From: Occultella glacieicola
GTDB lineage: Bacteria > Actinomycetota > Actinomycetes > Actinomycetales > Beutenbergiaceae
NCBI RefSeq assembly: GCF_004353825.1
Contig: NZ_SMNA01000013.1
Span: 1-64,000, forward strand
Length of the DNA: 64,000 bases
Reading direction: 5' to 3'
A model generated the notes under the pieces. It did not search any database. It was not told the DNA's origin and saw nothing but the letters and a program-made list of their open reading frames with translations. Within the stretch, counting starts at the first letter, position 1. Each line of letters starts with the position of its first letter. Of the stretch, positions 35,994 through 53,876 are shown in pieces. Made by a program: the position numbers and the translations under genes.

Positions 35994-36000
35994 TCGGTTC

Positions 36001-36034: not shown

Positions 36035-36056
36035 CCAAGCGGTCGAAGGAGACCCG

Positions 36057-37037
36057 ATGACGTTGATAGATCCGGCGCCGGTGAAGATGAGCCGGCGCGC
36101 GAAGACCTCCACGGGAGCGAGTGTGCCCCCCCGCAGGGGACTGCGCCGCCACATCCGGCGGTACTGGCAGCTGTGGGTGATGGCCGCACCGGCCATCGCG
36201 TTCGTGGCCGTGTTCTCCTACATCCCGATGTACGGGATCCAGCTCGCGTTCCGCGAGTTCGACTTCACCGCCGGGCTCACCGGTGGGGAGTGGGTGGGCC
36301 TGAAGTACTTCCGGCAGTTCTTCGAGAGTCCGCAGTTCTGGACGCTCATGCGCAACACGGTCGTGATCAGCGTGACCACCCTGGTGGTCGGGTTCATCGC
36401 CCCGATCGCGCTGGCCCTGCTGGTGAACCAGGTGATCGGCAGGTCGCGCAAGAAGTTCCTGCAGACCGCCACCTACCTGCCGCACTTCATCTCCATCGTG
36501 GTGATCGTCGGCATGCTGCAGGTGTTCCTCTCGCCGACCTCCGGGCTGATCACCCGGTTCCTGGAGGGCCTGGGCCTGACCGGGGTCAACTTCCTCGGCG
36601 ACCCCTCGGCGTTCGTGCCGGTCTACGTCATCTCCGAGGTGTGGCAGCACTGCGGCTGGAACTCGATCATCTACCTGGCCGCCCTGGCCAGCGTGGACAC
36701 CCAGCTCTACGAGGCCGCGAAGATCGACGGCGCCGGCCGGGTGAGCATCGTGCGGCACATCGACTTCCCGGCCCTGATCCCGACGATGATCGTGCTGCTC
36801 ATCCTGAACATGGGCGGGGTGCTGAACGCCGGCTTCGAGAAGATCTTCCTGATGCAGAACCCGCTGAACCTCTCGGTCTCGGAGGTGATCTCGACGTACG
36901 TGTACAAGATCGGGATCCTGTCCAACCAGTTCAGCTACGCGACCGCGATCGGGCTGTTCAACACGGCGATCAACTTCGTGTTCCTGGTGGTCACCAACCA
37001 GATCGCCAAACGCGTCTCGAACACGAGCCTGTGGTGA
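36057..37037 (+). CDS. Carbohydrate ABC permease
   Basis: PMYGIQLAF, WVGLKYF, PHFIS, LYEAAKIDGA, GFEKIFLMQN. Confidence 0.92.
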   Translation: MTLIDPAPVKMSRRAKTSTGASVPPRRGLRRHIRRYWQLWVMAAPAIAFVAVFSYIPMYGIQLAFREFDFTAGLTGGEWVGLKYFRQFFESPQFWTLMRNTVVISVTTLVVGFIAPIALALLVNQVIGRSRKKFLQTATYLPHFISIVVIVGMLQVFLSPTSGLITRFLEGLGLTGVNFLGDPSAFVPVYVISEVWQHCGWNSIIYLAALASVDTQLYEAAKIDGAGRVSIVRHIDFPALIPTMIVLLILNMGGVLNAGFEKIFLMQNPLNLSVSEVISTYVYKIGILSNQFSYATAIGLFNTAINFVFLVVTNQIAKRVSNTSLW

Positions 37038-37042
37038 GAGGA

Positions 37043-37963
37043 ATGACGACCATGCTGACCCGGCTGACCCGGCTGCGGCGCCGCAGTCCCGGTGACATCG
37101 CCTTCACGGTGTTCCTGGGCCTGACCTGTGCCCTCATCCTGTTCATCACCCTGTACCCCGTGTACTTCGTGATGATCGCCTCGATCTCCGACCCGACCCT
37201 GGTGGCCACCGGCCGGGTCTCGTTCTGGCCGCGCGGACTGTCCTCGTTCGGTTACGAGCAGATCTTCGCCGACACCCGCATCTGGACCGGCTACCGGAAC
37301 ACGCTGCTGTACACGGCCGCGGGGACCGCGTTGAACCTGCTGGTGACCCTGCCGGCGGCGTACGCGCTGTCCCGGCGGGAGTTCGCCCCCCGCAAGGTGC
37401 TCATGCTGTTCTTCGCGTTCACCATGTTCTTCAGCGGCGGGCTGATCCCCACCTACCTGCTCTACCGGGACCTCAACCTGCTGGACAACTGGGCCGTGTT
37501 CGTGATCCCGTCCGCGGTGAACGTCTACAACCTGATCATCGCGCGCGCGTTCTTCGAGCACTCCCTGCCGGAGGAGATCTTCGAGGCGGCCACGATCGAC
37601 GGCGCCAACTACTTCCAGTTCTTCCTCAAGATCGCGATCCCGCTGTCCGCGGCGATCATCTCCGTGATCGGCCTGTACTACCTGGTGCAGCACTGGAACG
37701 ACTTCTTCACCGGCCTCGTGTTCGTGCGCACCTACGACAAACAGCCGCTGCAGATCGTGCTCCGGGACATCCTCATCTCCAACCAGGCGTTCGCCGGTGG
37801 TGCGGGTGGTGCCGGCGGCACCGGCGGCAGTTACGCCCAGCAGTACGCGGACCAGATCAAGTACGGCGTGATCGTGGTCTCCACGCTGCCGATCATCGCG
37901 CTGTACCCCTTCCTGCAGCGGTACTTCGAGAAGGGCGTCATGATCGGGTCGGTGAAGGGCTGA
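37043..37963 (+). CDS. Carbohydrate ABC permease
   Basis: FSGGLIPTYL, FEAATIDGA, HWNDFF, YPFLQRYFEKGVMIGSVKG. Confidence 0.92.
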   Translation: MTTMLTRLTRLRRRSPGDIAFTVFLGLTCALILFITLYPVYFVMIASISDPTLVATGRVSFWPRGLSSFGYEQIFADTRIWTGYRNTLLYTAAGTALNLLVTLPAAYALSRREFAPRKVLMLFFAFTMFFSGGLIPTYLLYRDLNLLDNWAVFVIPSAVNVYNLIIARAFFEHSLPEEIFEAATIDGANYFQFFLKIAIPLSAAIISVIGLYYLVQHWNDFFTGLVFVRTYDKQPLQIVLRDILISNQAFAGGAGGAGGTGGSYAQQYADQIKYGVIVVSTLPIIALYPFLQRYFEKGVMIGSVKG

Positions 37964-38625
37964 TGCTGCGGCTGCTCGGCTGGCACACGAGGGCCGGCGA
38001 GGTCGGCCTGCGGCTGCTCCTGCTGAACCTGCTGTGGCTGCTGTACACCCTGCGCGGCGGGATCGTCCTCGGGCTGTTCCCGGCGACTGCCGCCGTGCAT
38101 GCGGTGCTGCGCCGCGACGCGATGGGGCACGACGGCGGAACTCGCCCCGGTCTGCGTGCGGAGTTCGCAGCGGCGTGGCGCAGCGAACTGCGGTCGGCGA
38201 ACGTGATCGGTTACCTGCTCGCCGTGGCCTGGGCGGTACTGCTCACCGAGCATCGCGTCCTGACCGACGGCGGTGCGCAGGGTCTGGCGGCCGGCGTCGC
38301 GGCCGTGCTCTGGTTCGCCGCCGCGTTCCTGTTCGTGGTCAGCGCCGTCGTCTGGATGCTGGCGGTCCATTTCGACGAGGGACCACTGGTCACCCTGCGG
38401 CGCGCCGTGCTCCTCGCGCTGGCCCGGCCGCTGACCGCGCTCGGGGCCGCGGCGATCCTCGCGGTCACGCTGTGCGTCTACTACGTGGTGCCGGGCCTGA
38501 TCCCGGTGTTCGGCGTGGCCGTGCCGGCCATGCTGACCTGCGCCCAACTGTGGCGCAGCGGCGTCCTGCCAGGCCCCGCGCGCCCGGCCCGGCCGGCGCG
38601 GGTGCCGGCACCGTTGAGTCACTGA
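37963..38625 (+). CDS. YesL/DUF624 family membrane protein
   Basis: LNLLWLLYTLRGGIVLGLFPATAA...F...WRSELRSAN; TGATG coupling. Confidence 0.82.
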   Translation: MLRLLGWHTRAGEVGLRLLLLNLLWLLYTLRGGIVLGLFPATAAVHAVLRRDAMGHDGGTRPGLRAEFAAAWRSELRSANVIGYLLAVAWAVLLTEHRVLTDGGAQGLAAGVAAVLWFAAAFLFVVSAVVWMLAVHFDEGPLVTLRRAVLLALARPLTALGAAAILAVTLCVYYVVPGLIPVFGVAVPAMLTCAQLWRSGVLPGPARPARPARVPAPLSH

Positions 38626-38637
38626 GAGGATCCACCG

Positions 38638-40452
38638 TTGGCACAGGTCACCCACGGACCGAACGGCCGCGCCCGGGCGCCGCAGGTGTTGCGGTCGCTC
38701 GGGCACGAGGGGCGGGTCCGGATCGACGGCGGCCCGCTCGCCGAGCGCATCGCCGACGCCACGGCGACCTACCTCGCCATGGAACCGGACGACGTCCTGC
38801 ACGGCTTCCGGGTGGCGGCCGGGCTGGTGTCGCCGGGCACGCCGATGACCGGCTGGTCCTCGGTGACGTCGGAGCCGACATTCGGGCAGTGGGTCAGCGG
38901 GCTCGCCCGCCTGGGCGCCACGACGGGCAACCGGGCGGCGCGCGAGCGGGCGGTCGAGCTGGTCGACGGTTTCGCGGCCACGGTCGGCGTCGATGGCGAC
39001 ACCCGGATGTCCCTCTACGGCTACGAGAAGCTCCTGTGCGGGCTCGTCGATACGTACACGTTCGCCGGGCACGAGGGCGCGCTGACGCTGCTGGAACGGA
39101 CCGTGCCGTGGGCCGAGCGGACGTTCGACCGGGCCCGCCCGACGCCGTCGGCCCACAACTTCGCGGGCGGCCACATCGGGCCGACCGGTCATGCCCGCAC
39201 CATCGAGTGGTACACCCTCGCCGAGAACCTCCATCGCGCCTGGCTGGCCGGCGCCGGCGACCGGGTCGGGGACTTCGCGCGGCTGTGGCACTACGACGCC
39301 TACTGGGACCGCTTCCTGGAGGAACCGGGACCGGGGCGGCCGTGGCCCGTGCCCACCTGGCTGCACGCCTACTCGCACCTGAACACCTTCGCCTCGGCCG
39401 CCGCCGCGTACGAGGCGACCGGACAGCACCGGTACCTGCAGATCGTGCGCAACGCGCACACCTACTTCACCGCGACCCAGACCTACGCGACCGGCGGCTT
39501 CGGTCCCAGCGAGTTCACGCTTCCGGAGGACGGCTCGCTCGGGCGCAGCCTGGAGTGGCGCACCGACACCGCCGAGATCGTCTGCGGGTCGTGGGCGGCC
39601 CTGAAGGTCTGCGCGGCCCTGCTGCGGTTCACGGGGGAGGCCCGCTACGGCGACTGGGTGGAGCAGCTCCTGTACTCCGGCGTGGGCGCGGTGACGCCGG
39701 TCCGGCCCGGCGGTCGGAGCCCGTACTACCAGGACTACCGGCTCGGGACCGCCACCAAGCTGCCCCACTGGGACGACTGGCCGTGCTGCTCCGGTACCTA
39801 CCTCCAGTGCGTGGCGGACCTGCCCGACTTCGTCTACCACGCGAGCGAGGACGGCCTGGCCGTGCTGCTCTACGTGCCGTCGTCCGTCTCGTGGGAGCAC
39901 GACGGCCGCGAGTTCGGCCTCACCCAGGAGACCGACTTCCCACGGACCGACACCGCACGGCTGGTCCTGCGCGGCGCGGGACGACTCGCGCTGCGGCTGC
40001 GCGTCCCCTCCTGGAGCAACGGGTTCCGGACGGCGGTGAACGGCGAGACTGTGCCGACTGTGCCGACTGTGGCGACGCCGGGCCAGTGGCTGGTCATCGA
40101 CCGGGACTGGGCCGACGGCGACGTCGTCGAGGTCACCCTCGGCGCCGGCCTGCGGGTGCTCCCGGTCGACGACCGGCACCCGAACCGGGTCGCCTTCGCG
40201 CACGGCCCGGTGGTGCTGGCGCAGAAGGCGGACTGGACCATGCCGATCTCCCTGCCGACGCCGTGGGAGATGGTCGACCTCGACGAGGCGCTCGTGCGGC
40301 AGGACGCCGGGAACGGCGACGGTCCGCGCTACCGGCCGGTCGGCGTCGGCACCGCGCGGCTGCCGCTCGGCGACCTGCGTCCCCTGTCCGAGATCGCCGA
40401 GCGCACGCCGCACCGGGTGTACTTCGACCTCGACGACCCGCGGATCGTCTGA
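38638..40452 (+). CDS. GH127/GH146-like (DUF1680) cysteine glycosidase, divergent subfamily
   Basis: HAYSH, YATGGFGPSE, AEIVCGSWAALK, YGDWVEQLLY, WPCCSGT, LRLRVPSW, GPVVLA. Confidence 0.82.
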   Translation: MAQVTHGPNGRARAPQVLRSLGHEGRVRIDGGPLAERIADATATYLAMEPDDVLHGFRVAAGLVSPGTPMTGWSSVTSEPTFGQWVSGLARLGATTGNRAARERAVELVDGFAATVGVDGDTRMSLYGYEKLLCGLVDTYTFAGHEGALTLLERTVPWAERTFDRARPTPSAHNFAGGHIGPTGHARTIEWYTLAENLHRAWLAGAGDRVGDFARLWHYDAYWDRFLEEPGPGRPWPVPTWLHAYSHLNTFASAAAAYEATGQHRYLQIVRNAHTYFTATQTYATGGFGPSEFTLPEDGSLGRSLEWRTDTAEIVCGSWAALKVCAALLRFTGEARYGDWVEQLLYSGVGAVTPVRPGGRSPYYQDYRLGTATKLPHWDDWPCCSGTYLQCVADLPDFVYHASEDGLAVLLYVPSSVSWEHDGREFGLTQETDFPRTDTARLVLRGAGRLALRLRVPSWSNGFRTAVNGETVPTVPTVATPGQWLVIDRDWADGDVVEVTLGAGLRVLPVDDRHPNRVAFAHGPVVLAQKADWTMPISLPTPWEMVDLDEALVRQDAGNGDGPRYRPVGVGTARLPLGDLRPLSEIAERTPHRVYFDLDDPRIV

Positions 40453-40524: not shown

Positions 40525-40554
40525 TTGACCCTAGTCTGACGATCTGTGTAGCGT
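40525..40554 (+). promoter_or_regulatory. Putative promoter of the namZ operon
   Basis: TTGACC, 18 nt spacer, TAGCGT, in an AT-enriched intergenic region. Confidence 0.55.
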
Positions 40555-40575: not shown

Positions 40576-41766
40576 GTGGGGGAACGGCCAGTGGTCCAGG
40601 TGGACGATGTGGCACGGGTCCGAACGGGCCTGAGCAGAGCGATCGCCGAGCCCGGCCTGATCGGCGACGGCCCCACCGGACTCTGCGCGAACTACACGTC
40701 CGTGACGGCGGACCTGCAGCGCGGTGTCGACGCGCTCCTGGCTGCGGGCGTGCCGCTGACCACGATCTTCACGCCCGAGCACGGCTACTGGGGGGCGGTA
40801 CAGGCGGGTGAGAGCGAGGGCGACGGCGTCGACGTCGCCACCGGGCTGCCGGTCCTGGACACCTACCGCTCGGACGGCGAGCGGCTGGACGCGCTGCTGC
40901 GCGGGTCCGGCGTGGCTCAGATCCTCGTGGACTTCCAGGACATCGGTGTTCGGTTCTACACCTACACCTGGACGCTCTTCGACCTGCTCTGTTCCGCGGC
41001 GCGCACCGGGATCCGCGTCGTGGTGCTCGACCGGCCGAACCCGCTGGGCGGCCTGGTCCGCACCGGGCCCGGCCTCGCGGCGTCCTGCTCGAGCTTCGTG
41101 GGTCGGGTCTCGATCCCGCTCCAGCACGGACTCACCCTCGGCGAGCTCGCGCGCTGGTTCAACGCCGTCCACGTGCCCGAAGCCGTCGGTGGCCCCGCCG
41201 ACCTCGAGGTGATCGAACTCGCCGGCTGGGGCCGGCAGCGCCAGGATCCGGGGCGCGCCTGGGTGATGCCCTCACCGAACATGCCCACGCTCGACACCGC
41301 CACCGTGTTCCCCGCGATCGGCCTGCTGGAGGGAACCGTGCTCTCGGAGGGCCGCGGTACGACGAAGCCGTTCGAGTTGTTCGGTGCCTCGTGGACCGAC
41401 GGACGCCTGGCGGCTGCCCTGACCGAGCGGGACCTGCCCGGCGTCGCCTTCCGCGAGGCCGTCTTCCGCCCCACGTTCAGCAAATGGCACGGCGACGTGG
41501 TGCACGGCGCCCAACTGCACCTGAGTGACCTCGGCGCATTCGACCCGATCGCCACCGGCGTGGCCGTGCTCCAGACGGTCACGGAACTGCACCCCGGGGA
41601 ATCGATCTGGCTGCCTGCGCACCCGGGGCGCCCGCCGTTCATCGATCTCCTCTGGGGCTCGCCGGCCCTGCGTGAGGGCGTCGACCGCGGCGCGGACACG
41701 GACGCGATCCTCGACGACGGCCCGCCGACGCCCACCGTGCCGGCGGACGCGCTCCTCTACACCTGA
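40576..41766 (+). CDS. namZ: Exo-beta-N-acetylmuramidase NamZ (DUF1343/YbbC family)
   Basis: FTPEHG, DFQDIGVRFYTY, VLDRPNPLGG, HGLTLGELA, WVMPSPNMPT, SEGRGTTKPFE. No signal peptide; start uncertain (40576 or 40591). Confidence 0.88.
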   Translation: MGERPVVQVDDVARVRTGLSRAIAEPGLIGDGPTGLCANYTSVTADLQRGVDALLAAGVPLTTIFTPEHGYWGAVQAGESEGDGVDVATGLPVLDTYRSDGERLDALLRGSGVAQILVDFQDIGVRFYTYTWTLFDLLCSAARTGIRVVVLDRPNPLGGLVRTGPGLAASCSSFVGRVSIPLQHGLTLGELARWFNAVHVPEAVGGPADLEVIELAGWGRQRQDPGRAWVMPSPNMPTLDTATVFPAIGLLEGTVLSEGRGTTKPFELFGASWTDGRLAAALTERDLPGVAFREAVFRPTFSKWHGDVVHGAQLHLSDLGAFDPIATGVAVLQTVTELHPGESIWLPAHPGRPPFIDLLWGSPALREGVDRGADTDAILDDGPPTPTVPADALLYT

Positions 41767-41806: not shown

Positions 41807-42502
41807 TTGTCTCCACAGACGATCATGGCCGTGGGCGGTCACATCGGCGACATGGACCTGGCCGCCGGGCCACTGCTCGCGCAGAACGTGCTCGACGGCG
41901 GACGTTCGGTGCTCGTGGCGCTCACCCCGGGCGAGCGCGGGCACCCCAGGATGTCTGCCGATGACTATCGCGACCAGAAGATCGCCGAGGCGCAGGCGTT
42001 CGCGGCCGGGATCGGGGCGGAGGTGGTGGTCTTCGACGACATCTCCGACGGGTTCCTGACCACCGACGACCTGGTCGCCGAACGTCTCGCGGACCTGATC
42101 CGTGAGGTCAGGCCCGCCACGTTGCTCGCCCACTGGCGGCGCAGCATCCACACCGACCACGAGAACGCGTCGATCCTCGCCGAGCGGGCCCGCTTCCTCG
42201 CCGGCCTGCCCGGCTGGAAGGACGAGACCGAGCGCCACGGCGTCGGGCGCCTGCTGTTCACGGAGAACTGGGAAGACGCGACCGGTTTCGACGCCGACCT
42301 GTTCATCGAGATCTCGGCCGAGGCGCACCGGCGCTGGACCGAGGCGATCGGCGGCCAGGCGTTCGCACGCGGCGAGACCTACGGGTTCCGCTACATCGAC
42401 TTCTACACGGCCCAGATGGTCACGCGGGGCTGCCTTGCCGGCGTGCCCCACGCCGTCGCCCTCTCCTCAGGGCCGACTCGGGGGATGTCACCCCTGGACT
42501 GA
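41807..42502 (+). CDS. PIG-L/LmbE-family Zn-dependent de-N-acylase
   Basis: MAVGGHIGDMD (HxxD), LTPGERGH, IREVRP..LLAHW, HTDH. TTG 41807 after GAAGGA. Confidence 0.85.
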   Translation: MSPQTIMAVGGHIGDMDLAAGPLLAQNVLDGGRSVLVALTPGERGHPRMSADDYRDQKIAEAQAFAAGIGAEVVVFDDISDGFLTTDDLVAERLADLIREVRPATLLAHWRRSIHTDHENASILAERARFLAGLPGWKDETERHGVGRLLFTENWEDATGFDADLFIEISAEAHRRWTEAIGGQAFARGETYGFRYIDFYTAQMVTRGCLAGVPHAVALSSGPTRGMSPLD

Positions 42503-42583
42503 GTCGCCCGCCGACGTCGGGAGGCGCCGGCCGCCCTGGCACCGTCAATCAGCACCATCGAACAGATCGGAAAGGTCATTCCC

Positions 42584-43540
42584 TTGCAGGTCTCCTATCG
42601 TGCGCACCGGCCCGGCGATGCCGCCCGGCTCGCCGAGCTCACCGCCCTCGCGATGCCACGCGATGCGGTCAGTGAGGACTGGTTCACCGACACCGTCCTG
42701 CTCGACCCGAACTTCGACCCGGACGGGCTGATCGTCGCCGTGGACCCGGAGACGGGACGCCCGCACGGTTTCGTCTACGCGGTGCGCGCCGGCCGGGGGA
42801 TAGGCCCCGATCCCGACGGCGGCTGGATCACGATCGGCTGCGTGCACCCCGAAGCCCGCGGCCAGGGCATCGGGACCGAACTGGTGCGGCGGGCCGGCGC
42901 GTTCCTCGCCGGCAAGGGTGCGCACTGGGTCAACTTCGCGGCCTACCCGCTCGCCTACTTCGTGCCCGGCCTGGACTCGGCGGCCTATCCGGACGCCGCC
43001 CGGCTGTTCGAGCGGGCCGGCTTCCGGCGGCTGTACACGGCCGCGGCGATGAGCCTCGATCTGGCCGAATACGCGACCCCCGCCGAGGTGCGGGACCTGC
43101 GTGCCGCCCGGGTCGCGGAGGGCTATTCTTTCGCGACCGCCGGGCCGGACGATCTGCCCGAGGTGATCTCCTTCGCCGCGCAGCGGCTGGCACCGGACTG
43201 GGGTGAGGCGGTCCGGGACTCGGTCCTGCAGCACGGCCGGATCGACCGGGTGCTCCTGGCGCGCCACCCCGAGGGCTCCGTCGTCGGGTTCGCCACCTAC
43301 GGCGCCTACCGCGGCCTGCGGGAACGGTTCGGGCCCTACGGCGTGGACGAGACCTGCCGCGGCACCGGTCTGGGCAAGATCCTGCTGCACGAGACCCTCA
43401 CCCGGATGCGCGCCGAAGGTGCCCAGAGCGCCTGGTTCCTGTGGACCGGTGAGAACTCACCCGCCGGGCACCTCTACCTCCGGTCCGGCTTCCGGGTCAC
43501 CCGGCGCTTCGACGTGCTCCGCGCCGACCTGGACCACTGA
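42584..43540 (+). CDS. Tandem-domain GNAT N-acetyltransferase (GlmA-like)
   Basis: Two acetyl-CoA motifs: VHPEARGQGIGTEL and FGPYGVDETCRGTGLGKILL; YFVPGLD and LYLRSGF. Confidence 0.85.
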   Translation: MQVSYRAHRPGDAARLAELTALAMPRDAVSEDWFTDTVLLDPNFDPDGLIVAVDPETGRPHGFVYAVRAGRGIGPDPDGGWITIGCVHPEARGQGIGTELVRRAGAFLAGKGAHWVNFAAYPLAYFVPGLDSAAYPDAARLFERAGFRRLYTAAAMSLDLAEYATPAEVRDLRAARVAEGYSFATAGPDDLPEVISFAAQRLAPDWGEAVRDSVLQHGRIDRVLLARHPEGSVVGFATYGAYRGLRERFGPYGVDETCRGTGLGKILLHETLTRMRAEGAQSAWFLWTGENSPAGHLYLRSGFRVTRRFDVLRADLDH

Positions 43541-43582: not shown

Positions 43583-45244
43583 ATGAGAACCCCGAGGTTC
43601 ATCCGACTGGCCGCCGTGCTGACGGCCGGTGCCCTGGCATTGTCGGCCTGTACCGGCGGCGACGGCGACGGTGACTCCGGCGCCGACGCCGGCGCCGTCC
43701 AGCCGCTCACGATCCACGCCAACACGGCGAACACCTACCAGCAGAACTTCAACCCGTTCTCCCCGACCGCGCTGCAGGGCACCAAGGGCATGCTCTACGA
43801 GCCGCTCATGGTCGCCACCGCGATGGTCCCCGGCGAGACCCAGCCCTGGCTCGCCGAGTCGATGGAGTTCAACGAGGACGGCACGGTCGTCACGTTCGTG
43901 CTCCAAGAGGGCGTCACCTGGTCCGACGGCGAGGCGTTCGACGCCGACGACGTCGCCTTCACCTTCAACCTGATGCGCGACAACCCGGCGGCGAACGCCG
44001 GGGCGCTCGACCTCGCCGACGCGGTCGCCGTGGACGCTCGCACCGTGGAGGTGACCTTCAACAGCGTCGCGTTCGCATTCCAGTCCTCCATCGCGAACAC
44101 CGTCATGGTCCCCGAGCACGTGTTCTCGGGTGTCGACCCGATCGAGTTCCAGAACGAGGAACCGGTGGCCACCGGGCCGTTCGTGCTCGAACAGTTCGGG
44201 CAGCAGCTCTACACACTGGGTGCGAACGAGGCCTACTGGAACGCCGACGAGGTCCAGGTCGAGCAGGTCCGGTACCCGGCGTCCACCGACCAGACGTTCA
44301 ACAGCTCACTGCAGGCCGGCGAGTTCGACTGGTCCGGCGGGTTCGTCGCCAACATCGACCAGATCTACATCTCGGGCGACCCGGACCACCGGTCCTACTG
44401 GTACCCCGGGGACGGGCTCGTCAACCTGCTCGTGAACACCCAGACCGCCCCGTTCGACGACGTCGAGGTTCGCCGGGCGCTCAGCGCCGGCATCGACCGC
44501 AACCAGCTGTCCGAGGTCGCCATGCAGGGGTACACCCCGCCGGCCCACCCCACCGGGCTGCCGTTGCCGGCCTACGAGTCGGTGATGAGCGAGGAGTACG
44601 CCGACGCGGAGTTCAGCTATGACGTCGACGAGGCGAACGCGATCCTCGACGAGGCCGGCTACCCGCTGGGCAGCGACGGGGTGCGCACCACCCCGGACGG
44701 TGAGCAGATGTCCTACGCGCTGCAGATCCCGTCGAGCTATGTGGACTGGGTGACGATAAGCGGACTGCTCCAGGAGCAACTGGCGCAGATCGGCGTGGTC
44801 GTCGAGCCCCAGGGGGTCTCGTTCGAGGCCTGGCTCGAGGCCCGCAACTCCGGCAACTACCAGATGACCATCGCCTCGGTGTCGATGGGGCTCACGCCGT
44901 ACACCCTGTTCCGTTCCATGATGAGCTCGGAGTACCGGACCGGTCCGGGCGAGACCGTCGTCTCGAACTACAACCGTTTCTACGACGAGGACGCGGACGC
45001 CCTGTTGGAGTCCTTCGCGAGCACGATCGACCCGGCGCAGCAGCAGGCGGCCTTCGACGGGCTCGAGCGGATCATGGTCGAGGAGCTCCCGGTGATCGCG
45101 ATGCTCCAGTCCCCGAACTGGTTCCAGTACAACACCGTGCGTTGGGAGGGCTTCCCGACCGAGGAGGACCCCTACGCCCTGGGTGCGCCGTACCAGTTCC
45201 CCGACAACCTGCTCGTGGTCACGAACCTGACGCCCGCAGGCTGA
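43583..45244 (+). CDS. Family-5 (peptide/oligosaccharide) ABC solute-binding lipoprotein
   Basis: Lipobox LSAC; NFNPF, LYEPL, WSDGEAFDADDVAFTF, ATGPF, VRRALSAGIDR. Confidence 0.9.
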   Translation: MRTPRFIRLAAVLTAGALALSACTGGDGDGDSGADAGAVQPLTIHANTANTYQQNFNPFSPTALQGTKGMLYEPLMVATAMVPGETQPWLAESMEFNEDGTVVTFVLQEGVTWSDGEAFDADDVAFTFNLMRDNPAANAGALDLADAVAVDARTVEVTFNSVAFAFQSSIANTVMVPEHVFSGVDPIEFQNEEPVATGPFVLEQFGQQLYTLGANEAYWNADEVQVEQVRYPASTDQTFNSSLQAGEFDWSGGFVANIDQIYISGDPDHRSYWYPGDGLVNLLVNTQTAPFDDVEVRRALSAGIDRNQLSEVAMQGYTPPAHPTGLPLPAYESVMSEEYADAEFSYDVDEANAILDEAGYPLGSDGVRTTPDGEQMSYALQIPSSYVDWVTISGLLQEQLAQIGVVVEPQGVSFEAWLEARNSGNYQMTIASVSMGLTPYTLFRSMMSSEYRTGPGETVVSNYNRFYDEDADALLESFASTIDPAQQQAAFDGLERIMVEELPVIAMLQSPNWFQYNTVRWEGFPTEEDPYALGAPYQFPDNLLVVTNLTPAG

Positions 45245-45287: not shown

Positions 45288-45320
45288 CGTGGCCGCATCC
45301 GACCCGAGAGGTTGTCCCGC

Positions 45321-46298
45321 GTGAAGTACCTCCTGCGCAAGGTGATGTTGTACGTGTTCATCGCCTGGGCTGCGCTCACCATGAACTTCCTGATCCCACG
45401 GCTGATGCCGGGCGATCCCGTCGCGCTGCTCGTCGAACGGCTCCAGGGCCGGATCGACCCGGCCGCCATGGAGGCGATCGCGGAGAGCTACGGACTCACC
45501 GACGCGCCGTTGCTGCAGCAGTACCGGGACTATCTCGCGTCGCTCGCGGCGGGTGACCTGGGCCTCTCGATCGGCTTCTTCCCGGTCCCGGTCTCCGAGA
45601 TCGTGATGGGGGCGTTGCCGTGGACGATCGGCCTGGTCGGGATCACCACCGTGATCAGCTTCCTGGTCGGCACCGGCCTCGGTGTGGTGCTCGCCTGGCG
45701 CCGCGGCTCCTGGACCGACCACCTGCTGCCGGCCCTCACCTTCCTGAACGCCGTCCCGTACTTCTGGATGGCGCTCATCCTGGTCCTGGTCCTCTCGGTG
45801 AACCTGGGCTGGTTCCCCGTCTCGCAGGCCTACGAGCCCGGCCTGACACCGGGGTGGGACTGGGAGTTCATCTCCTCGGTGCTCTACCACGCCTTCCTGC
45901 CGGCGGTCACGATCATCCTGGCGTCCTTCGCCGGGTGGGTGCTGAGCATGCGGAACATGACGGTGACCGTCCTGGGTGAGGACTACGTGACGATGGCGGA
46001 GGCGAAGGGGCTGCCGAAGCGGATGGTGCTGGTCAACTACGCGGCCCGGAACGCGATCCTGCCCTCGGTGACCGGGTTCGCGCTGTCCCTCGGCGCCGTC
46101 GTCGGTGGATCCATGCTGACCGAGGTCATCTTCAACTACCCGGGGGTGGGGTACACCCTGTTCGAGGCGGTCCAGAACCAGGACTTCCCGCTGATGCAGG
46201 GACTCTTCCTGATCATCTCGCTGGCGGTGATCGTCGCGAACCTCGTGGCGGACGTCATCTACGTGTTCCTCGACCCCCGCACCCGCCAGGAAGGCTGA
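45321..46298 (+). CDS. DppB/OppB-type ABC permease
   Basis: LMPGDP, GDLGLS, EDYVTMAEAKGL, RNAILP, EVIFNYPGVG, DPR. Confidence 0.9.
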   Translation: MKYLLRKVMLYVFIAWAALTMNFLIPRLMPGDPVALLVERLQGRIDPAAMEAIAESYGLTDAPLLQQYRDYLASLAAGDLGLSIGFFPVPVSEIVMGALPWTIGLVGITTVISFLVGTGLGVVLAWRRGSWTDHLLPALTFLNAVPYFWMALILVLVLSVNLGWFPVSQAYEPGLTPGWDWEFISSVLYHAFLPAVTIILASFAGWVLSMRNMTVTVLGEDYVTMAEAKGLPKRMVLVNYAARNAILPSVTGFALSLGAVVGGSMLTEVIFNYPGVGYTLFEAVQNQDFPLMQGLFLIISLAVIVANLVADVIYVFLDPRTRQEG

Positions 46299-46300
46299 CC

Positions 46301-48190
46301 ATGAGACTCTCACGATTCCTGCCGACCTCCGGGAAGGTCCGCGCGGGGCTGATCATCGCCGTCTTCTTCGTGCTGCTGGCCGTCTTCGGGCCGCTCCTGA
46401 CGAGCTACTCGCCGCAGGCCAGCGGTACCGATCTGCTCCAGCCGCCGTCCGGCACGCACTGGCTCGGCACCACCCAGACCGGTCAGGACGTCTTCGCCCA
46501 GTTCGTGTACGGGGCCCGGATCTCGCTCGGGGTCGGCCTGGTCGCTGGGATCCTGTCGCAGATCGTCTCGGTCCTGGTCGGCGTGATCGGGGGCTACTTC
46601 CGCGGGCTCTCGGACGACCTGCTCTACATCCTGACGGCCGTGTTCCTGGTGGTTCCCGGGATGCCGCTGCTGATCGTGCTCACCGGCTACCTGCCCTCCC
46701 GGGGGATGGTCTCGGTCGCGTTCGTCATCGCGATCACGTCCTGGGCCGGTTCGGCCCGGGTGCTGCGGGCCCAGACCATGTCGCTGCGACGACGTGAGTT
46801 CGTCGAGGCGGCCCGCGCCACGGGCGAGTCGCGCACCCGGATCGTGTTCTCCGAGATCATGCCGAACGCGTTGCCGCTGATCGCCTCCGGATTCCTGTTC
46901 TCGGTGATCGGGGCGGTGCTGGCCGAGGCCGGGTTGTCCTTCCTCGGCCTCGGCTCGCTGACGACCACGAGCTGGGGCTCGATGCTCTACTTCGCCCAGA
47001 GCGCGCAGGCGTTCCTGTACGGCGCCTGGTGGTGGTTCGTGCCCCCGGGCCTGGCGATCGCCGTTCTCGGGGCCGGTCTGGCCCTGATCAACTTCGGGAT
47101 CGACGAGTACTCCAACCCGCGGCTGCGCACCGGTAGGAGCCGGGCCCGGGCCGTGCGGTCCCGTGGGCCGCACGCGGCCGCCCTCAGCACCGCCGGCGCC
47201 TCGGCCGCCGCCTCCGGTGCCGAGACGCCCGGCGTGGCGACGATCCTGCACGACGACGCCCCGGACGAGACGGTCGGGTCCGTGCCGGCCGGCGCCGCAC
47301 CGGCGCCACCCCAGATCCGAGAGCTCGACGTGCCCGGCAAGCCGATCATCGAGGTCCGTCACCTCAAGGTCGACTATCCGGGCGCGGACCAGGTGGTGCA
47401 CGCCGTCGACGACGTCTCGATCACCCTGCACCGCGGCGAGCTCCTCGGCCTCGCGGGGGAGTCCGGCAGCGGCAAGTCCACGCTCACGAACGCGATCACC
47501 CGGCTGCTCCGCAACCCGGCTCAGGTGACCGGGGGATCGATCACCTACCACCGGTCCGCGCGTGGGCGCCCGAGCGGGCCGACGACCGGCGGCTCGGAAG
47601 CCGAGGTCGAAGCCATCGACCTGCTCGGGCTCTCCACGGAGGAGCTACGCGCCTACCGCTGGGACGAGCTCGCCATCGTGTTCCAGAGTGCGATGAACGC
47701 GCTGAACGCCGTGACCAGTGTCGGGGCCCAGTTCGACGACGTGCTCCGCGTGCACCGGCCCACCATGCCCGCCCGCGAGCGGGAGGCGCTGGCCCGGACC
47801 ATGCTCGAGAAGGTCGGGATCGACCCCGGCCGGGTGTCGGCCTACCCGCACGAGCTCTCCGGCGGGATGAAGCAGCGGGTCGCCATCGCCATCGCCCTCG
47901 TGCTCGAGCCGGACGTGATCGTCATGGACGAGCCGACCACGGCGCTCGACCTGCTGATCCAGCGCGAGGTGCTCGACCAGGTCATGGCCCTGCGGGACGA
48001 GTACGGCTTCGCGATCATCTTCACCACGCACGACCTGTCCCTGCTGCTGGAGGTCTCGGACAGCATCGCCGTGATGCAGCGTGGCCGGCTGGTCGAGTAC
48101 GGTCCGGCGCTCGAGGTGTACGCCGAACCTCGCCACCCCTACACGCGGGCGCTGCTCGCCTCACTCGCAGACATGGGAGCACTGGTATGA
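46301..48190 (+). CDS. DppC-type permease fused to a DppD-type ATPase
   Basis: HWLGTTQTGQD, EFVEAARATG, LSFLGLG; ~70-aa linker; GESGSGKS, LSGGMKQR, MDEPTTALD, HPYT. Confidence 0.9.
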   Translation: MRLSRFLPTSGKVRAGLIIAVFFVLLAVFGPLLTSYSPQASGTDLLQPPSGTHWLGTTQTGQDVFAQFVYGARISLGVGLVAGILSQIVSVLVGVIGGYFRGLSDDLLYILTAVFLVVPGMPLLIVLTGYLPSRGMVSVAFVIAITSWAGSARVLRAQTMSLRRREFVEAARATGESRTRIVFSEIMPNALPLIASGFLFSVIGAVLAEAGLSFLGLGSLTTTSWGSMLYFAQSAQAFLYGAWWWFVPPGLAIAVLGAGLALINFGIDEYSNPRLRTGRSRARAVRSRGPHAAALSTAGASAAASGAETPGVATILHDDAPDETVGSVPAGAAPAPPQIRELDVPGKPIIEVRHLKVDYPGADQVVHAVDDVSITLHRGELLGLAGESGSGKSTLTNAITRLLRNPAQVTGGSITYHRSARGRPSGPTTGGSEAEVEAIDLLGLSTEELRAYRWDELAIVFQSAMNALNAVTSVGAQFDDVLRVHRPTMPAREREALARTMLEKVGIDPGRVSAYPHELSGGMKQRVAIAIALVLEPDVIVMDEPTTALDLLIQREVLDQVMALRDEYGFAIIFTTHDLSLLLEVSDSIAVMQRGRLVEYGPALEVYAEPRHPYTRALLASLADMGALV

Positions 48191-49038
48191 GTTCCGACGT
48201 GACGGATCCAGTCGGCCCCGGAAACGGGCGCGTGGTCCTCGAAGCCCGGAACCTGGTCAAGGACTTCCGCACGAACAAGCGGGCCGGGGTGTTCGGCCGG
48301 GAGTACTTCCGGGCCGTCGACGACGTCTCCCTGGAACTGCGTGCGGGCCAGGTGACCGCGCTCGTGGGCCAGAGCGGCTCCGGCAAGAGCACGGTCGGCC
48401 GCCTGCTCGCGCAACTGGTGCCGCTGACGTCCGGGGAGATCCTGCTGAACGGTGCGCCGGTGGCGGCCACGCGCGGGCGTGCCTTCATCCGCTACACCGG
48501 CACCGTGCAGATGACCCTGCAGGATCCGTTCGCCTCACTGAATCCCCTGCACCGGGTCAGTTACACACTGGGCCGGGCGCTGCGCATCCACGGCGGTCCG
48601 ATGAGTGCCGACGACGTGACCGAGCGCAGCCTCGCGCTGCTCCGGAAGGTGGAGCTGGGTCCGGCCGAGCTGTACCTGCACCGGTTCCCGCACGAACTCT
48701 CGGGCGGGGAACGGCAGCGGATCTCGTTCGCACGTGCGCTCGCCGCCGAACCGAAGGTGCTGCTCGCGGATGAACCGGTCTCGATGCTCGACGTGACGAT
48801 CCGCAAGGGGATGCTCGACCTCCTGGACCAGTTGCGCCGGACCGAGGAACTCGCCGTCCTGTACATCACCCACGACCTGGGTTCCGCCCGTGCCTACTCC
48901 GCCGAGACCCTGGTCATGTACCACGGCAAGGTCGTGGAGCGGGGGCCGAGCGACCAGGTGATCCACGACCCCGCCCACGAGTACACGCGGCGGTTGCTCG
49001 CCGCCGCGCCGAACCCCCGACGGCGTCTGGCCGGGTGA
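48187..49038 (+). CDS. DppF/OppF-type ABC ATPase
   Basis: GQSGSGKS, QDPFASLNP, LSGGERQR, ADEPVSMLD, ITHDL. Confidence 0.92.
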   Translation: MSSDVTDPVGPGNGRVVLEARNLVKDFRTNKRAGVFGREYFRAVDDVSLELRAGQVTALVGQSGSGKSTVGRLLAQLVPLTSGEILLNGAPVAATRGRAFIRYTGTVQMTLQDPFASLNPLHRVSYTLGRALRIHGGPMSADDVTERSLALLRKVELGPAELYLHRFPHELSGGERQRISFARALAAEPKVLLADEPVSMLDVTIRKGMLDLLDQLRRTEELAVLYITHDLGSARAYSAETLVMYHGKVVERGPSDQVIHDPAHEYTRRLLAAAPNPRRRLAG

Positions 49039-49055: not shown

Positions 49056-50564
49056 TCACCACAGCAGGAGATCGGCCACGGCGGCCGCGCTCACCGCGCT
49101 CGAGCCGTACGTCGTGACCAGACGCGGCACGTCCACGTCGAGGTCGCCGGGCCAACCCACACGCACCACCACGGTGTCCCGGTGTCGGGCCATGACCTCG
49201 GCGAGCGCATCGCGCTCGGCCGCGGCGAGGTGCGGCTGGTCGACGACCAGCACGACCTCGCCGCTGCGCGGGCCGGGCAGCAGGTCGGCGATGTCGCCGG
49301 CGTCGAACCGGCGGTGGACGATCGGCGTGCGAGCGGCGAGCGCCACGCCGACCAGGTCCGCCTCACGCCCGGCCGCGCGATTGCGCAGCACCCGGGCGTC
49401 GATCACGGTGACCGGTTCGTCGCCGCGCAGACGGACGTCCCCGCGGACGTCGCAGGCACCGGCGGCCGCCCGCGTCGCAGCGGCGGTCGGGATGCGCGAC
49501 GCCGACCCATCGGGGACCCGGGCGCCGCGCTGGGCGGTGACCCAGGCGCGCAGGGACGCGATCCGCTCGACGGCTTCCTCGAGCCGCTCGGTCGGCAGCG
49601 TCCCGGAGCGGAGGGCGTCGACGACTGCGGTGTGCACCCGGACGTAGGCCGACTCGTCCGGGTGCGGGTCACCTGGCGTGCGGGGATCCGCCCCCTGGTT
49701 GCCGAGGCAGACGAGGTCCACGCCGGCGGCGAGGGCGGCGACGGCGCCCGGCCCGAGACCGAGGGTGCCCGCAATGGCCTCCATCTCCACGGCGTCGGAG
49801 ACGATCAGGCCGTCGAAGCCCATCCCGCGCAGGATCGACAGCGCCCGTGGGTTCACCGTCGCCGGTTCCGGACCGAGCACGGGCACGATGATGTGAGCCG
49901 TCAGCACGGCCCGGACCCCGGCCTCGATCGCGGCCCGGAACGGAGCGAGGTGGATCTGCTCGAGTTCCTCGGCGCTCACCTCCATCCGGCTCACGCCGAG
50001 GTGGGAGTCGGTGGTGGTATCGCCATGGCCGGGGAAGTGCTTCGCGCACGCCGCGGTGCCGGCGCGCTGCAGTCCTCGCACGTAGGCGGCCGTGTGCCGC
50101 GCCACCAGTCCGGGATCGGCCCCGAAGGAACGACTGCCGATCACCGGGTTCGCGGGGTTGTTGTTCACGTCGGCGACGGGGGCCAGGTCGAGGGCGATGC
50201 CGTGGCGGGCCAGTTCGCCGCCGATCTGCTCGGCAACGGCCTCCGTGTCCGACTCGACGTCGTGGCGGCCCAGCGCGGCGTGGCCAGGGCTCGGCGAGCC
50301 GTCCCGGGCGTGCAGGCGGGTCACCAGGCCACCCTCCTCGTCCACTCCGACGAGACCGTCCGTGGGACCCAGTTCGCCGACGAGACGTGCCACCTGGCCG
50401 GGGTCGTCGGGCTCGACGTTGTGGGCGAACAGCAGGGCGCCCGGCGTTCCGGCGGCGCGGGCCCGCAACAACCAGTCGGGTGCCCGGGTGCCCGCGAATC
50501 CCGGCCAGAGCACGGCGTGGGCGAGGGACTCGAGCGAGCGGTCGATGCCGCGGTGTTCCGCCAT
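49056..50564 (-). CDS. nagZ: GH3 beta-N-acetylglucosaminidase (NagZ type)
   Basis: VDEEGGLVTRL, LAPVADV, RSFG, KHFPGHGDTTTDSH (NagZ Asp-His dyad), VSDAVEM. No signal peptide; start 50564 or 50582. Confidence 0.9.
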   Translation of the reverse strand: MAEHRGIDRSLESLAHAVLWPGFAGTRAPDWLLRARAAGTPGALLFAHNVEPDDPGQVARLVGELGPTDGLVGVDEEGGLVTRLHARDGSPSPGHAALGRHDVESDTEAVAEQIGGELARHGIALDLAPVADVNNNPANPVIGSRSFGADPGLVARHTAAYVRGLQRAGTAACAKHFPGHGDTTTDSHLGVSRMEVSAEELEQIHLAPFRAAIEAGVRAVLTAHIIVPVLGPEPATVNPRALSILRGMGFDGLIVSDAVEMEAIAGTLGLGPGAVAALAAGVDLVCLGNQGADPRTPGDPHPDESAYVRVHTAVVDALRSGTLPTERLEEAVERIASLRAWVTAQRGARVPDGSASRIPTAAATRAAAGACDVRGDVRLRGDEPVTVIDARVLRNRAAGREADLVGVALAARTPIVHRRFDAGDIADLLPGPRSGEVVLVVDQPHLAAAERDALAEVMARHRDTVVVRVGWPGDLDVDVPRLVTTYGSSAVSAAAVADLLLW

Positions 50565-50679
50565 GACCTCATCGTGCGTCAATCATTGGCGGACAGCAAG
50601 GAATTCGCGTCAATAGTTTTCTCCGACGTGATGTTGCTGGTTTACTTGGCATGGTCGATTCAGGAAGGCGAGGTACGCG

Positions 50680-51606
50680 GTGGCTGAGTCCCAACCCGTC
50701 CCGGGCGACGGGACCGGCGCACTCGAGACCGAGCGGATCGACGCGAGGTATCGGCGACTGGACGTGGTCCCGACCCTGGACGCGCTCCGCGCGATGAACG
50801 AGGCGGAGGCCGGGGTGCCGGCGGCGGTGCGAGCCGTGCTGCCCCAGATTGCGAGGGTCGTCGACGCGGTCGCGGCCCGGATGGAGGCCGGAGGGCGGCT
50901 GATCTACCTCGGAGCCGGCACCTCGGGTCGGTTGGGGGTGGTGGACGCCTCGGAGTGTCCCCCGACGTTCCACACCGACCCGGACCAGGTCGTGGGGGTG
51001 ATCGCCGGAGGACGTGGTGCCATGTTCGAGTCCGTGGAGGGGGCTGAGGACTCCGCCGACCTAGGTGCCGCCGACATCGGCCGCCTCGGGGTCGCCGCCG
51101 TCGACACGGTCGTCGGGATCGCCGCGAGCGGCCGCACCCCGTTCGTGCTCGGCGGGATCCGGGCCGCGCGCGCCGCCGGTGCCCTGACCGTGGGCCTGGC
51201 CTGCAACACCGGCTCCGCGCTCGGGGCTGCCGTGGACCTGCCGATCGAGGTCGAGGTGGGGCCCGAGGTCATCGCCGGCTCGACCCGCCTGAAGGCCGGC
51301 TCCGCGACGAAGCAGGTGCTGAACATGATCTCGACCGGCGTGATGATCAGGCTCGGGAAGACCTACGGGAACCTGATGGTCGATCTGTCCGTCAGCAACG
51401 TCAAGCTTCGGGAGCGGGCCGAGCGCCTGGTCGCGACCATCACGGGTGCGGACCCCCAGGCCGCGGCACGGGCCCTGACGGAGTCCGGTCTTCGGGTCCC
51501 GGTGGCCGCGATCATGCTGGCCCGCGGGGTGGATCGGGACGCCGCCGAGCGGCTCCTCGCCGGGGCCGGTGGCCGGCTCGGCGGCGTTCTGGACGCTCAG
51601 GCCTGA
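50680..51606 (+). CDS. murQ: N-acetylmuramic acid 6-phosphate etherase
   Basis: GAGTSGRLGVVDASECPPTF, EGAED, GIAASGRTP, VGPEVIAGSTRLKAG, GNLMVD, NVKLRERA. Confidence 0.96.
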   Translation: MAESQPVPGDGTGALETERIDARYRRLDVVPTLDALRAMNEAEAGVPAAVRAVLPQIARVVDAVAARMEAGGRLIYLGAGTSGRLGVVDASECPPTFHTDPDQVVGVIAGGRGAMFESVEGAEDSADLGAADIGRLGVAAVDTVVGIAASGRTPFVLGGIRAARAAGALTVGLACNTGSALGAAVDLPIEVEVGPEVIAGSTRLKAGSATKQVLNMISTGVMIRLGKTYGNLMVDLSVSNVKLRERAERLVATITGADPQAAARALTESGLRVPVAAIMLARGVDRDAAERLLAGAGGRLGGVLDAQA

Positions 51607-52820
51607 GCGAGGTGGCGGCGGGCCAGGCCGGTCACGGCGCGTCGTAGCGGACCGGCGTCGAACGCGCTCCGGTCCGGCTGGACACGGTTGGTCAGCAGTA
51701 CCACCGTCAGGTCCGCCTCGGTGTCGATCACCAGCGAGGTGCCGGTGAACCCGGTGTGGCCGATCACCGCCGGATCTGCGGTACCCATGAACGTGGCGTC
51801 GCCGAGGCGCATGCCGAGCGCCTGCCCGTACCCCACCCGGTCCCGCTCGGCCGCGGGGAGGACGTCCCGGCGGAGCAGTGCCAGGGAGTCCTCGCGCAGC
51901 AGTCCCGGTCGGTCCGGACGCAGGGCGGCCGCGAACCGGATCAGATCCGGGGCGGTGCCGAACGCGCCGGCGTTCCCGGAGCCGCCAAGACTCCAGGCCG
52001 CCTCGTCGTGGACGACGCCCCGCACGAGCCCGCGGTCCGGGGCGGACTGGTACTCGGTCGGCACCACCGACTCGCCGGCACCGCTGGGGTCGTAGCCGGT
52101 GCTCGACATCGCCAGCGGCCCGGTGACGGTGTCCCGCAGGAGCGTGGGTAGGTCGCGCGCGGTCAGGTGTTCGAGCAGGAGACCGAGCACCATGAAGCCC
52201 ACGCACGAGTAGGCGTGGCTCGCACCCGGTTCGGACCGCAGCCCGGTGCCCAGCACCAGCCGGGCGCGGTCCTCCCGGGTGCCGGGGACCTCCCACAGCC
52301 GCAGCACCGGCGGCAGGCCGGAGGTGTGGGTGAGCAGGTGCCGGGCGGTCACCTGGTGGTGGGCGCGGTCGACGGCGAACTCGGGGAGGGCGTCGGTCAC
52401 CGGGCGGTCGAGGTCGAGGACGCCCGCGTCCACCTGGACCAGTGCGGTGACGGTGGTCAGGATCTTCGTCAGCGACGCGAGGTCGAACACCGGCGCCAAC
52501 GGCAGCGCGCGCCGGTCCGCGGCCGGGAGCAGGGCGCCGTCGGCCGCGAAGAGGGTGGCGTACCCGGCCTGCGCGCGGGCGACCACCCGCCCGCGGTGGG
52601 CGATCACGGCATCCGCTCCTGCGGTGCCGGGGACGGGGTCGCCGGCTCCGACCGGGGCCGGGCCGGAGGCGGCGCTACGGGTGCTCGCGTCGAGCAGGCC
52701 CTGCAGGGCGGCCGTCAGCTCCTGGTCGAGCCCGGTTCCGGCCGTGGACGTGGGCTCGTGGTCGTTCCGGCCGGTCACGGGTCTCGCCCCGGTGCCCTCG
52801 GTCGTCGGCTGGTCGGTCAT
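51597..52820 (-). CDS. Beta-lactamase-like serine hydrolase, AmiE-like (candidate MurNAc-L-Ala amidase/peptidase)
   Basis: FDLASLTK (SxxK), LLTHTSGL, YSCVGF, GVVHDEAA, GNAGAF, GHTGFTGTSL, LLTNRV. No signal peptide. Confidence 0.8.
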   Translation of the reverse strand: MTDQPTTEGTGARPVTGRNDHEPTSTAGTGLDQELTAALQGLLDASTRSAASGPAPVGAGDPVPGTAGADAVIAHRGRVVARAQAGYATLFAADGALLPAADRRALPLAPVFDLASLTKILTTVTALVQVDAGVLDLDRPVTDALPEFAVDRAHHQVTARHLLTHTSGLPPVLRLWEVPGTREDRARLVLGTGLRSEPGASHAYSCVGFMVLGLLLEHLTARDLPTLLRDTVTGPLAMSSTGYDPSGAGESVVPTEYQSAPDRGLVRGVVHDEAAWSLGGSGNAGAFGTAPDLIRFAAALRPDRPGLLREDSLALLRRDVLPAAERDRVGYGQALGMRLGDATFMGTADPAVIGHTGFTGTSLVIDTEADLTVVLLTNRVQPDRSAFDAGPLRRAVTGLARRHLAQA

Positions 52821-52826
52821 TCGTCG

Positions 52827-53687
52827 TCAGTTGTCCCGGAACAGGGCGACCGCGTCATGGGTGTCGCGCAGGGCGTCGACCGTCTCGGCCATCCGGCGCT
52901 GCGCGACCGCCACGAAGATACAGTCCACGATCAGCAGCTGGGCCGTCCGCGAGGCCATCGACCCGGACCGCAACGGTGACTCTCGGACCGTGGTGCGCAG
53001 CACCAGGTCCGCGGCCCGGGCCACGGGTGAGCCGGCCACGTTCGTGATCGCCACCGCGGTCACCCCGCGCTCGCGGGCGGACTCCAGGAACCGCACCACC
53101 TCGGCCGTCGTGCCCCGGTGCGAGAAGCCGACCGCCACGTCACCCGCGCCCATCAGGCCGAGCGAGGTGACGGCGTCGTGCCCGTCCGGGAAGGAGTAGG
53201 CGACCCGACCGATCCGGAACAGTTTGCGATGCAGGTCCGCCGCGCTCCAGCCGCTTCCGCTGACGCCGTAGACGGAGATCCGCGCGGCGGAGTCGATCGC
53301 GTCCACGACCCGGCCGAGCTCGGCCACGTCCAGGTTGTTGATGGTCTCCTCGATGCACAGGTTCTCGGTGAACCCGATACTCGCCACCACCTCCTCGAGC
53401 GTGCTGCCCGCCGAGATGTCCGAACCGTACGCGGCCACCGGGCCTCGTCGTGCGCCCTCGCGGCCCACCTCGGTGGCGAGTGCGATCCGGAGCTGGACGT
53501 ATCCGGCCAGGCCCAGCGTCCGGCAGAACCTGACGATCGTGGTCTCCGACGTCGAGCACTTGCGCGCCAATTCGGAGATCGTCTCCTCCAGCACCAGCCG
53601 CGGGTCGGCCAGGATCGCGTCCGCCACCCGGCGCATCGAGGGCGCCAGGGTGTCACGCTTCGCCTGGATCTGGGACTGGATGCTCAC
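52827..53687 (-). CDS. murR: RpiR/MurR-family transcriptional regulator
   Basis: [30 protein letters not shown] domain [24 protein letters not shown]. Confidence 0.88.
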
Positions 53688-53876
53688 GTGAGCCCTTCGA
53701 CGACGGGTGCTGTCTCTCGGGTCGGGCGCCACCGGCCGCTCCGACGCAAGCACTTTACCGAGCCGGTCCAGATCCCGGTGCTCGTTTGCGACGGGCCGTC
53801 GAGCCGGTGCAGAACCGCGCGCCCGAGGCAGGACCACGTGTCCGACTGCGTGGGTCTGAGAACTCGGTCGCCGCTC

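Follow-up and report, generated by a model that had tools for sequence, protein, structure and literature searches.

A PIG-L-fold metalloenzyme family lacking the general-base aspartate, paired with a tandem GNAT, as a candidate module for salvage of muramic delta-lactam

The tandem GNAT acetyltransferase GlmA N-acetylates glucosamine in cell-wall salvage, a role documented in part by PDB titles. For the muramic nitrogen, the known changes are de-N-acetylation, N-glycolylation and formation of the delta-lactam (PMC11555704). In the spore cortex, 30-50% of the muramic residues are lactam, and the cortex is fully degraded at germination (PMC10116595). The D73N variant of Bacillus subtilis PdaA has lost deacetylation and has kept the cyclisation of MurN to the lactam; this cyclisation requires no energy input and proceeds to as much as 75% or almost to completion. 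The lactam itself is strained, and without a catalyst MurN cyclises slowly (PMC10116595). Among catabolic enzymes, NamZ requires MurNAc at the non-reducing end (PMC8054146), and PIG-L-type CE14 enzymes also act at the non-reducing end (PMC9779004). The first aspartate of the HXD1D2 motif was proposed as general base for all 10 LmbE-like enzymes tabulated in PMC4101496.

The window, i.e., the whole 64,000-nucleotide stretch analyzed here (positions 1 to 64,000 of Occultella glacieicola contig NZ_SMNA01000013.1), carries namZ, nagZ, murQ, murR and a transporter together, and thus a peptidoglycan-sugar catabolic cluster. The gene for a NamZ-family exo-beta-N-acetylmuramidase (40576..41766, + strand; PF07075 E 4e-60, PF20732 E 3e-38) encodes a protein on which no signal peptide was visible by eye. 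It is followed by a PIG-L-fold metalloenzyme gene (41807..42502, +), which starts with TTG at 41807 behind a GAAGGA ribosome site and encodes 231 aa, and, 81 bases further 3', by a tandem GNAT gene (42584..43540, +; TTG start, 318 aa, two GNAT stretches). The first motif of the PIG-L protein reads GGHIGDMD. The preliminary description, which placed a HIGD-type PIG-L protein directly ahead of a two-domain GNAT in a namZ-ABC operon, is borne out by these coordinates. Downstream lie a family-5 solute-binding lipoprotein (43583..45244, +; PF00496), which resembles chitin-oligosaccharide binding proteins (1zty, E 2.6e-71), and three ABC genes on the + strand (45312..49038), encoding a permease (45312-46298), a permease-ATPase fusion (46301-48190) and an ATPase (48187-49038). 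The cluster continues with a nagZ-like GH3 glycosidase (49056..50582, -; PF00933 E 7e-63), the MurNAc-6-phosphate etherase gene murQ (50680..51606, +; above the cut-offs of NF003915, NF009222 and TIGR00274), a beta-lactamase-fold hydrolase that is AmiE-like by context (51597..52820, -; PF00144 E 5e-53) and a MurR/RpiR regulator (52827..53837, -; PF01418 and PF01380), given here as the longest ORF, its true start probably lying about 150 bases further in.

Ahead of namZ, a promoter-like TTGACC-18 nt-TAGCGT stretch (40525..40554, +) was read by eye and is partly kept in two related loci (L007 and L008); it does not pass the consensus of a promoter and terminator scan, which returned no sites. 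Further 5' (30190-40452) lies a separate cluster with two LacI regulators, two GH127 glycosidases, a carbohydrate ABC system and DUF624. On the other side (53786-56592), an FMN-dependent alpha-hydroxy-acid dehydrogenase gene is divergent from murR and is followed by a polysaccharide pyruvyl transferase-family gene (- strand). In the same genome, contig C16 carries AnmK and another murQ; there are also two NagA-like genes, both below cut-off, and six further PIG-L genes (five HPDD, one HCDD), and the genome gave no GlmA-type match at E<=1e-6. The nearest named relative is Occultella gossypii, with 91% identity for both the PIG-L protein and the GNAT.

To follow the pair across genomes, 86 loci were compiled, comprising the best 80 of 566 relatives found among 598 stretches in a genome scan, five loci from an actinomycete sample and the window; because the best-80 set is biased, evenly drawn samples were added. 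The 80 best loci span actinobacteria, Paenibacillus, Cohnella, clostridia, Acholeplasmataceae, Armatimonadota, Acidobacteria and Thermofilaceae archaea. The GNAT gene adjoins the PIG-L gene in 70 of the 86 loci, lies 6.6 kb away in one, and was not seen in 15, several of which are cut by contig ends. Matches came from 22 of 350 evenly drawn Bacillota genomes; ten of these belonged to the core family, with an adjacent GNAT in 10/10, while the other 12 comprised one divergent member and 11 HPDD-type or other PIG-L proteins without GNAT. Among 300 evenly drawn actinomycetes the PIG-L gene occurred in five, each time next to the GNAT gene. When the window's own genome was included, the PIG-L family and the GNAT subfamily (E<1e-90) were found in the same six genomes, always adjacent, and none of the 301 genomes held the GNAT subfamily at this threshold without the PIG-L gene. 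Five weaker GNAT matches (E 1e-26 to 1e-33) were seen in the actinomycete sample, four of them in other genomes. Both proteins also occur as a GNAT-PIG-L fusion of 562 aa, in one protein cluster with two members. The tree distances of 81 PIG-L/GNAT pairs correlate (r=0.75, reached by 0/500 permutations), but related genomes have a common history, and the correlation is not counted as evidence. The PIG-L and GNAT genes form a conserved module, and their pairing is not due to chance. A search aimed at longer forms did not recover the GNAT fusion; its sole product was a 630-aa fusion of an MFS transporter with PIG-L from a Thermoanaerobaculia genome (P0433). A search of the ESM Atlas gave PIG-L clusters only.

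The PIG-L protein of the window scores 61 bits against PF02585 (cut-off 28; E 1.6e-16) and stays below the cut-off of the BshB1 model TIGR04001 (71.6 versus 182.5 bits). Its structural model (pLDDT 91) reaches a TM of ~0.8 to BC1534, TT1542 and BshB. The top match in sequence and fold is GalB (Z 28.4, rmsd 3.9, 220 aligned), about equal to the structural match with BC1534 (Z 27.4, rmsd 3.4, 215 aligned). The family, which counts 41 proteins at E<=1e-30 in a search of 50% representatives, shares the motifs H-x-x-D, HW-x-x-S-x-H-x-[DR]H and [ED]N-x-ED, which in the window protein include H12-I-G14-D15, H115-T-D117-H118 and E153-NWED157. By sequence, the metal ligands H12, D15 and H118 are kept in all 86 loci, as are Asp81 and His115, the equivalents of MshB Asp95 and His144; Asp117 is retained too. 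MshB Arg68 apparently corresponds to Lys58 (84/86), a position mapped via pairwise alignments only. ENWED served as the search pattern for 80 of the 86 loci, and its conservation there is by construction.

The general-base site, position 3 of the first motif, is Gly in 85 and Ala in one of the 86 loci and never Asp. It is without exception other than Asp in 53 full-length EN-x-ED-bearing representatives chosen from the 150 matches listed, and is Phe, Leu or Met in 61 metagenome motifs. In a tree with HPDD outgroups, the 50 dereplicated groups of the family come together in a single clade (support 0.87), which also takes in one extra motif-incomplete member and leaves out a GalB-like protein (L116). 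Using the catalytic Glu and His roles that we assume for GalB, its GERGE aligns with GERGH in the window protein, which does not group with the GalB clade. Pfam and NCBIfam contain no model naming either the PIG-L or the GNAT subfamily. Whatever the acyl group turns out to be, the finding of a widespread family that lacks the base aspartate and is encoded next to muramic-specific genes holds; by our estimate it covers about 900 stretches in one genome-per-species collection, which would be re-annotated.

The model of the GNAT (pLDDT 93) matches GlmA best (5kf1, TM 0.83), at 19% identity. The preliminary description had likened the protein to GlmA, which holds for the fold and fails for identity. 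Asp287 of GlmA, which we take to be the catalytic base (a PDB title documents no more than work on D287N), is replaced by Leu (Leu286 in the window protein) in 67 of 73 GNAT sequences, a set of 73 that includes three GNATs that are not PIG-L partners. An Arg just N-terminal of the FGP strand is present in 66/73 (Arg248), with His in its place in Thermofilum, and the IGPPIYW insert of GlmA is absent from the family. In two loci (L058 and L094) the gene cluster that holds the pair also encodes a true GlmA, complete with DWT motif; these proteins match GlmA at E 3e-81 and 7e-58, compared with 8e-6 for the window GNAT. The missing Asp287, the missing insert and this coexistence rule out a GlmA orthologue, and by sequence the GNAT belongs to a sister family of GlmA. 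Glucosamine is therefore a less likely acceptor than muramic acid. The residue changes suggest an acceptor that bears a carboxylate, i.e., muramic acid: the Arg would hold the lactyl group, whereas an Asp would clash with it or become needless. A third type of tandem GNAT, with GWVG and without the Arg, adjoins the pair on the opposite strand in Actinocatenispora (L016:11314-12195, L019:2980-3945).

The genes near the pair point to muramic acid as well. Across the 86 loci, we found NamZ in 44, MurR in 32, MurQ in 30, NagZ in 26, a BadF-type kinase in 23, an AmiE-like hydrolase in 20 and AnmK in 17; NamZ flanks the pair directly in 31/86 loci, as opposed to NagZ in 1/86. The proposal that the pair is conserved next to mur genes thus agrees with the larger sample. 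Divergent subfamilies adjoin MupG, AnmK or MurQ. Dereplication of 170 sequences gave the 50 family groups, of which 30 have the GNAT, 11 a SIS protein and 30 a muramic-specific neighbour; the 20 without such a neighbour include an ABC-PIG-L-ROK-GntR-SIS-NagA type and two loci that adjoin a beta-mannosidase. When metagenomes were scanned with divergent members, 62 redundant loci were returned, 10 with GNAT only, 30 with a PRK02947 SIS protein only, none with both and 22 with neither. Some of them combine PTS, GNAT, PIG-L and MupG, and in others PRK02947 SIS takes the place of the GNAT, together with MupG, AnmK or ROK kinase and NagA. This mutual exclusion, to which one genomic locus (L013, GNAT and SIS genes ~6.5 kb apart) is an exception, is in keeping with an amine product that can be disposed of in two ways, and the PRK02947 SIS protein may act as an etherase or a deaminase on the phosphate of deacylated muramic acid.

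Several further gene arrangements were observed. GNAT-free operons (L104:5253-12377, L135, L136, L137 and L157) join PIG-L and PRK02947 SIS with MupG-PTS, AnmK or ROK-NagA, mostly without MurQ; a GH2 enzyme beside GNAT-free loci, considered as an exo-glucosaminidase, proved to be beta-mannosidase-like. Genes of the creatininase family (cyclic amidohydrolases) adjoin the module in two unrelated loci (L028:2275-3177, L104:11607-12377). ETF-ETF-FAD oxidase genes lie directly 3' of the pair in L094:3456-6674 and L041:1722-5098. GHL10 glycosidases accompany PIG-L in L036, L080, L044, L049 and L065, the three clostridial loci among these showing no GNAT, and L036 and L080 additionally carry LD-carboxypeptidase, DAP-decarboxylase-like and M19 dipeptidase genes. 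Thermofilaceae archaea make no peptidoglycan, and two of their loci (L062:9028-13048, L084:7460-13384) hold GNAT-PIG-L with namZ and an amiE-like gene, the latter also murQ and a kinase.

From the gene layout, the co-occurrence, the residue changes and the folds we infer both substrates and the order of the steps. De-N-acetylation alone calls for just an acetyltransferase. In our judgement the chances are about even that the base-less PIG-L protein hydrolyses the muramic delta-lactam of cortex fragments and that the adjacent GNAT acetylates the freed amine, yielding MurNAc for NamZ and MurQ. Short wall fragments would be imported by the ABC system and trimmed of their terminal GlcNAc by NagZ. 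PIG-L would then open the exposed lactam ring to give muramic acid, and acetylation of the amine by the GNAT with acetyl-CoA would draw forward a reaction that by itself lies on the side of the ring. NamZ would subsequently free MurNAc, and the kinase, MurQ and NagA would complete its breakdown. The precedent is PdaA, an analogy, as its fold differs from that of PIG-L: because the reaction is reversible, a PdaA-like site could open the ring, provided that the amine is trapped. An enzyme unable to deacetylate would also not run a futile cycle with the GNAT, a concern of the preliminary description that the loss of the general-base Asp helps to dispel. O. glacieicola is an actinobacterium that does not form endospores, and it would obtain such fragments from other organisms. 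The idea that lactam arises spontaneously and so provides substrate is unsupported, uncatalysed cyclisation being slow (PMC10116595), which would leave spores as the only source of lactam. The family's enrichment in spore formers is not significant (10/10 versus 286/350 genomes with spoIVA, p=0.22). Counted against the lactam reading are the GalB match, tied with BC1534 and likewise without the Asp, the 20/50 groups without a muramic neighbour, the 15/86 loci showing no GNAT, the His for Arg in Thermofilum GNATs, and a NamH-like gene in 3/5 chosen PIG-L-bearing actinomycetes.

The acyl swap put forward in the preliminary description, in which PIG-L strips the N-glycolyl group off the muramic acid found in actinomycete walls before the GNAT puts an acetyl group in its place, retains its logic; its choice of acyl group we consider distinctly unlikely. 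The pairing, the muramic context and the residue changes fit this reading too, and the three pair-bearing actinomycetes with a NamH-like gene (G302, G306 and G311), as detected with a query we take to be NamH, speak for it. However, the genome bearing the window lacks NamH, the family extends to clostridia and Thermofilum, and the pair occurs in 0/37 NamH-like genomes of the even sample of 301 (two of them, G006 and G014, unpublished), a weak argument as only ~0.6 are expected by chance. Furthermore, the linked FAD oxidase of L094 is nearer to LctD (380 bits) than to glycolate oxidase (264 bits) in a PDB comparison; judged by this similarity, oxidases of this type are likely a sink for the D-lactate released by MurQ in anaerobes. 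As to genes for glycolate disposal, the FMN dehydrogenase of the window is absent from the recurring neighbour clusters. NagA enzymes already remove N-glycolyl from GlcNGc-6-phosphate, so the swap would be needless. N-glycolyl is thus the less likely acyl group and the muramic delta-lactam fits better, while one enzyme could act on both, as both are alpha-oxy acyl amides.

That PIG-L is a plain N-deacetylase of MurNAc, anhydro-MurNAc or GlcNAc, using the invariant Glu156 or Asp157 or the lactyl carboxylate of the substrate as its base, with the GNAT independently re-acetylating muramic acid of de-N-acetylated walls and both acting on different sugar forms, appears unlikely. The retained metal ligands and substrate residues (Asp81, His115, Asp117) are in line with it, cell walls are known to contain de-N-acetylated muramic acid (PMC11555704, PMC10838918), and GNAT-free SIS loci with MupG or AnmK, mostly without MurQ, could deacetylate first and then use SIS. 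It would, however, leave the 1:1 pairing and the fusion unexplained and risk a futile cycle in the cytoplasm, and the GNAT subfamily never occurred without PIG-L among the 301 actinomycete genomes. It also has to contend with nagA, present in 44 of 50 genomes tested from the best 80 loci (37 over cut-off) and located within several SIS-type loci. The same count, together with the two below-cut-off NagA-like genes of O. glacieicola, rules out PIG-L as a NagA replacement, an objection raised in advance against the acyl swap. Unlikely too, finally, is a chemistry other than amide hydrolysis or on another group: PIG-L would then be a hydratase or lyase of the GalB kind, an O-deacylase, an enzyme that removes an uncharacterised N-acyl group, or one that proofreads mis-acylation by the GNAT. 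The GalB match without Asp and the loci and groups in which wall genes or muramic neighbours are missing favour it, whereas the family clade leaves out the GalB-like protein of L116, a hydratase would have no use for a partner that transfers acetyl groups, and the existence of loci without GNAT speaks against proofreading. MdaA, considered as a candidate lactam hydrolase, was set aside, as the only paper found under this name describes an anhydro-MurNAc deacetylase.

Returning to opening of the muramic lactam, a full-text search of open-access papers and preprints retrieved, among the matches listed, no description of the pair or of a lactam-opening salvage enzyme, and no paper on the catabolic fate of the cortex lactam. 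The module is real and widespread, is set in a known kind of operon and contributes two enzyme activities that are probably new. We regard it as an evenly balanced proposition that it constitutes the first dedicated route of spore-cortex salvage, a base-less PIG-L lactam hydrolase driven by a muramic acid N-acetyltransferase or by the SIS route and spread over actinobacteria, bacilli, clostridia and peptidoglycan-free archaea feeding on germination debris. If so, it would supply an undescribed step of muramic lactam recycling and a reagent for turning cortex fragments into ordinary muropeptides. The pair singles out two enzymes open to testing, and with them come two diagnostic motifs and a substrate that is accessible by synthesis in vitro.

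In comparison with known systems, the GNAT shares its tandem fold with C. acetobutylicum GlmA and with the fungal NagZ-GNAT fusion 4zm6 (TM 0.83 and 0.82), and with both a cell-wall salvage setting and, by prediction, re-acetylation ahead of an exo-glycosidase. In contrast to GlmA, it has Leu for Asp287, a conserved Arg, no IGPPIYW and a PIG-L partner, and its family tracks NamZ and MupG instead of NagZ. The LmbE/PIG-L de-N-acylases MshB, BshB1, Tk-Dac and Mca have the fold (Z 20.5-27.4), the His-Asp-His site and the Asp95 and His144 equivalents in common with the PIG-L family, which differs in lacking the general-base Asp, in the apparent Lys58 for MshB Arg68 and in an EN-x-ED loop of its own. 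GalB, a 4-oxalomesaconate hydratase (5cgz) and the best match, has HSAD and thus likewise no Asp at this site; the identity is 25-29%, and the window family has no aromatic-degradation context. PdaA of B. subtilis, a metal amidohydrolase, still interconverts MurN and lactam when its base Asp is missing (PMC10116595), yet it has the CE4/NodB fold, and it acts on polymer during spore formation and in the biosynthetic direction. The murQ-murR-murP-amiE-nagZ-namZ operon of B. subtilis shares the core catabolic genes and the logic of exo-cleavage with the window locus (PMC8054146), and the accessible portions of that paper mention no lactam, deacetylase or acetyltransferase for it. Compared with this operon, the O. 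glacieicola locus relies on ABC uptake, and its hydrolases appear to be cytoplasmic.
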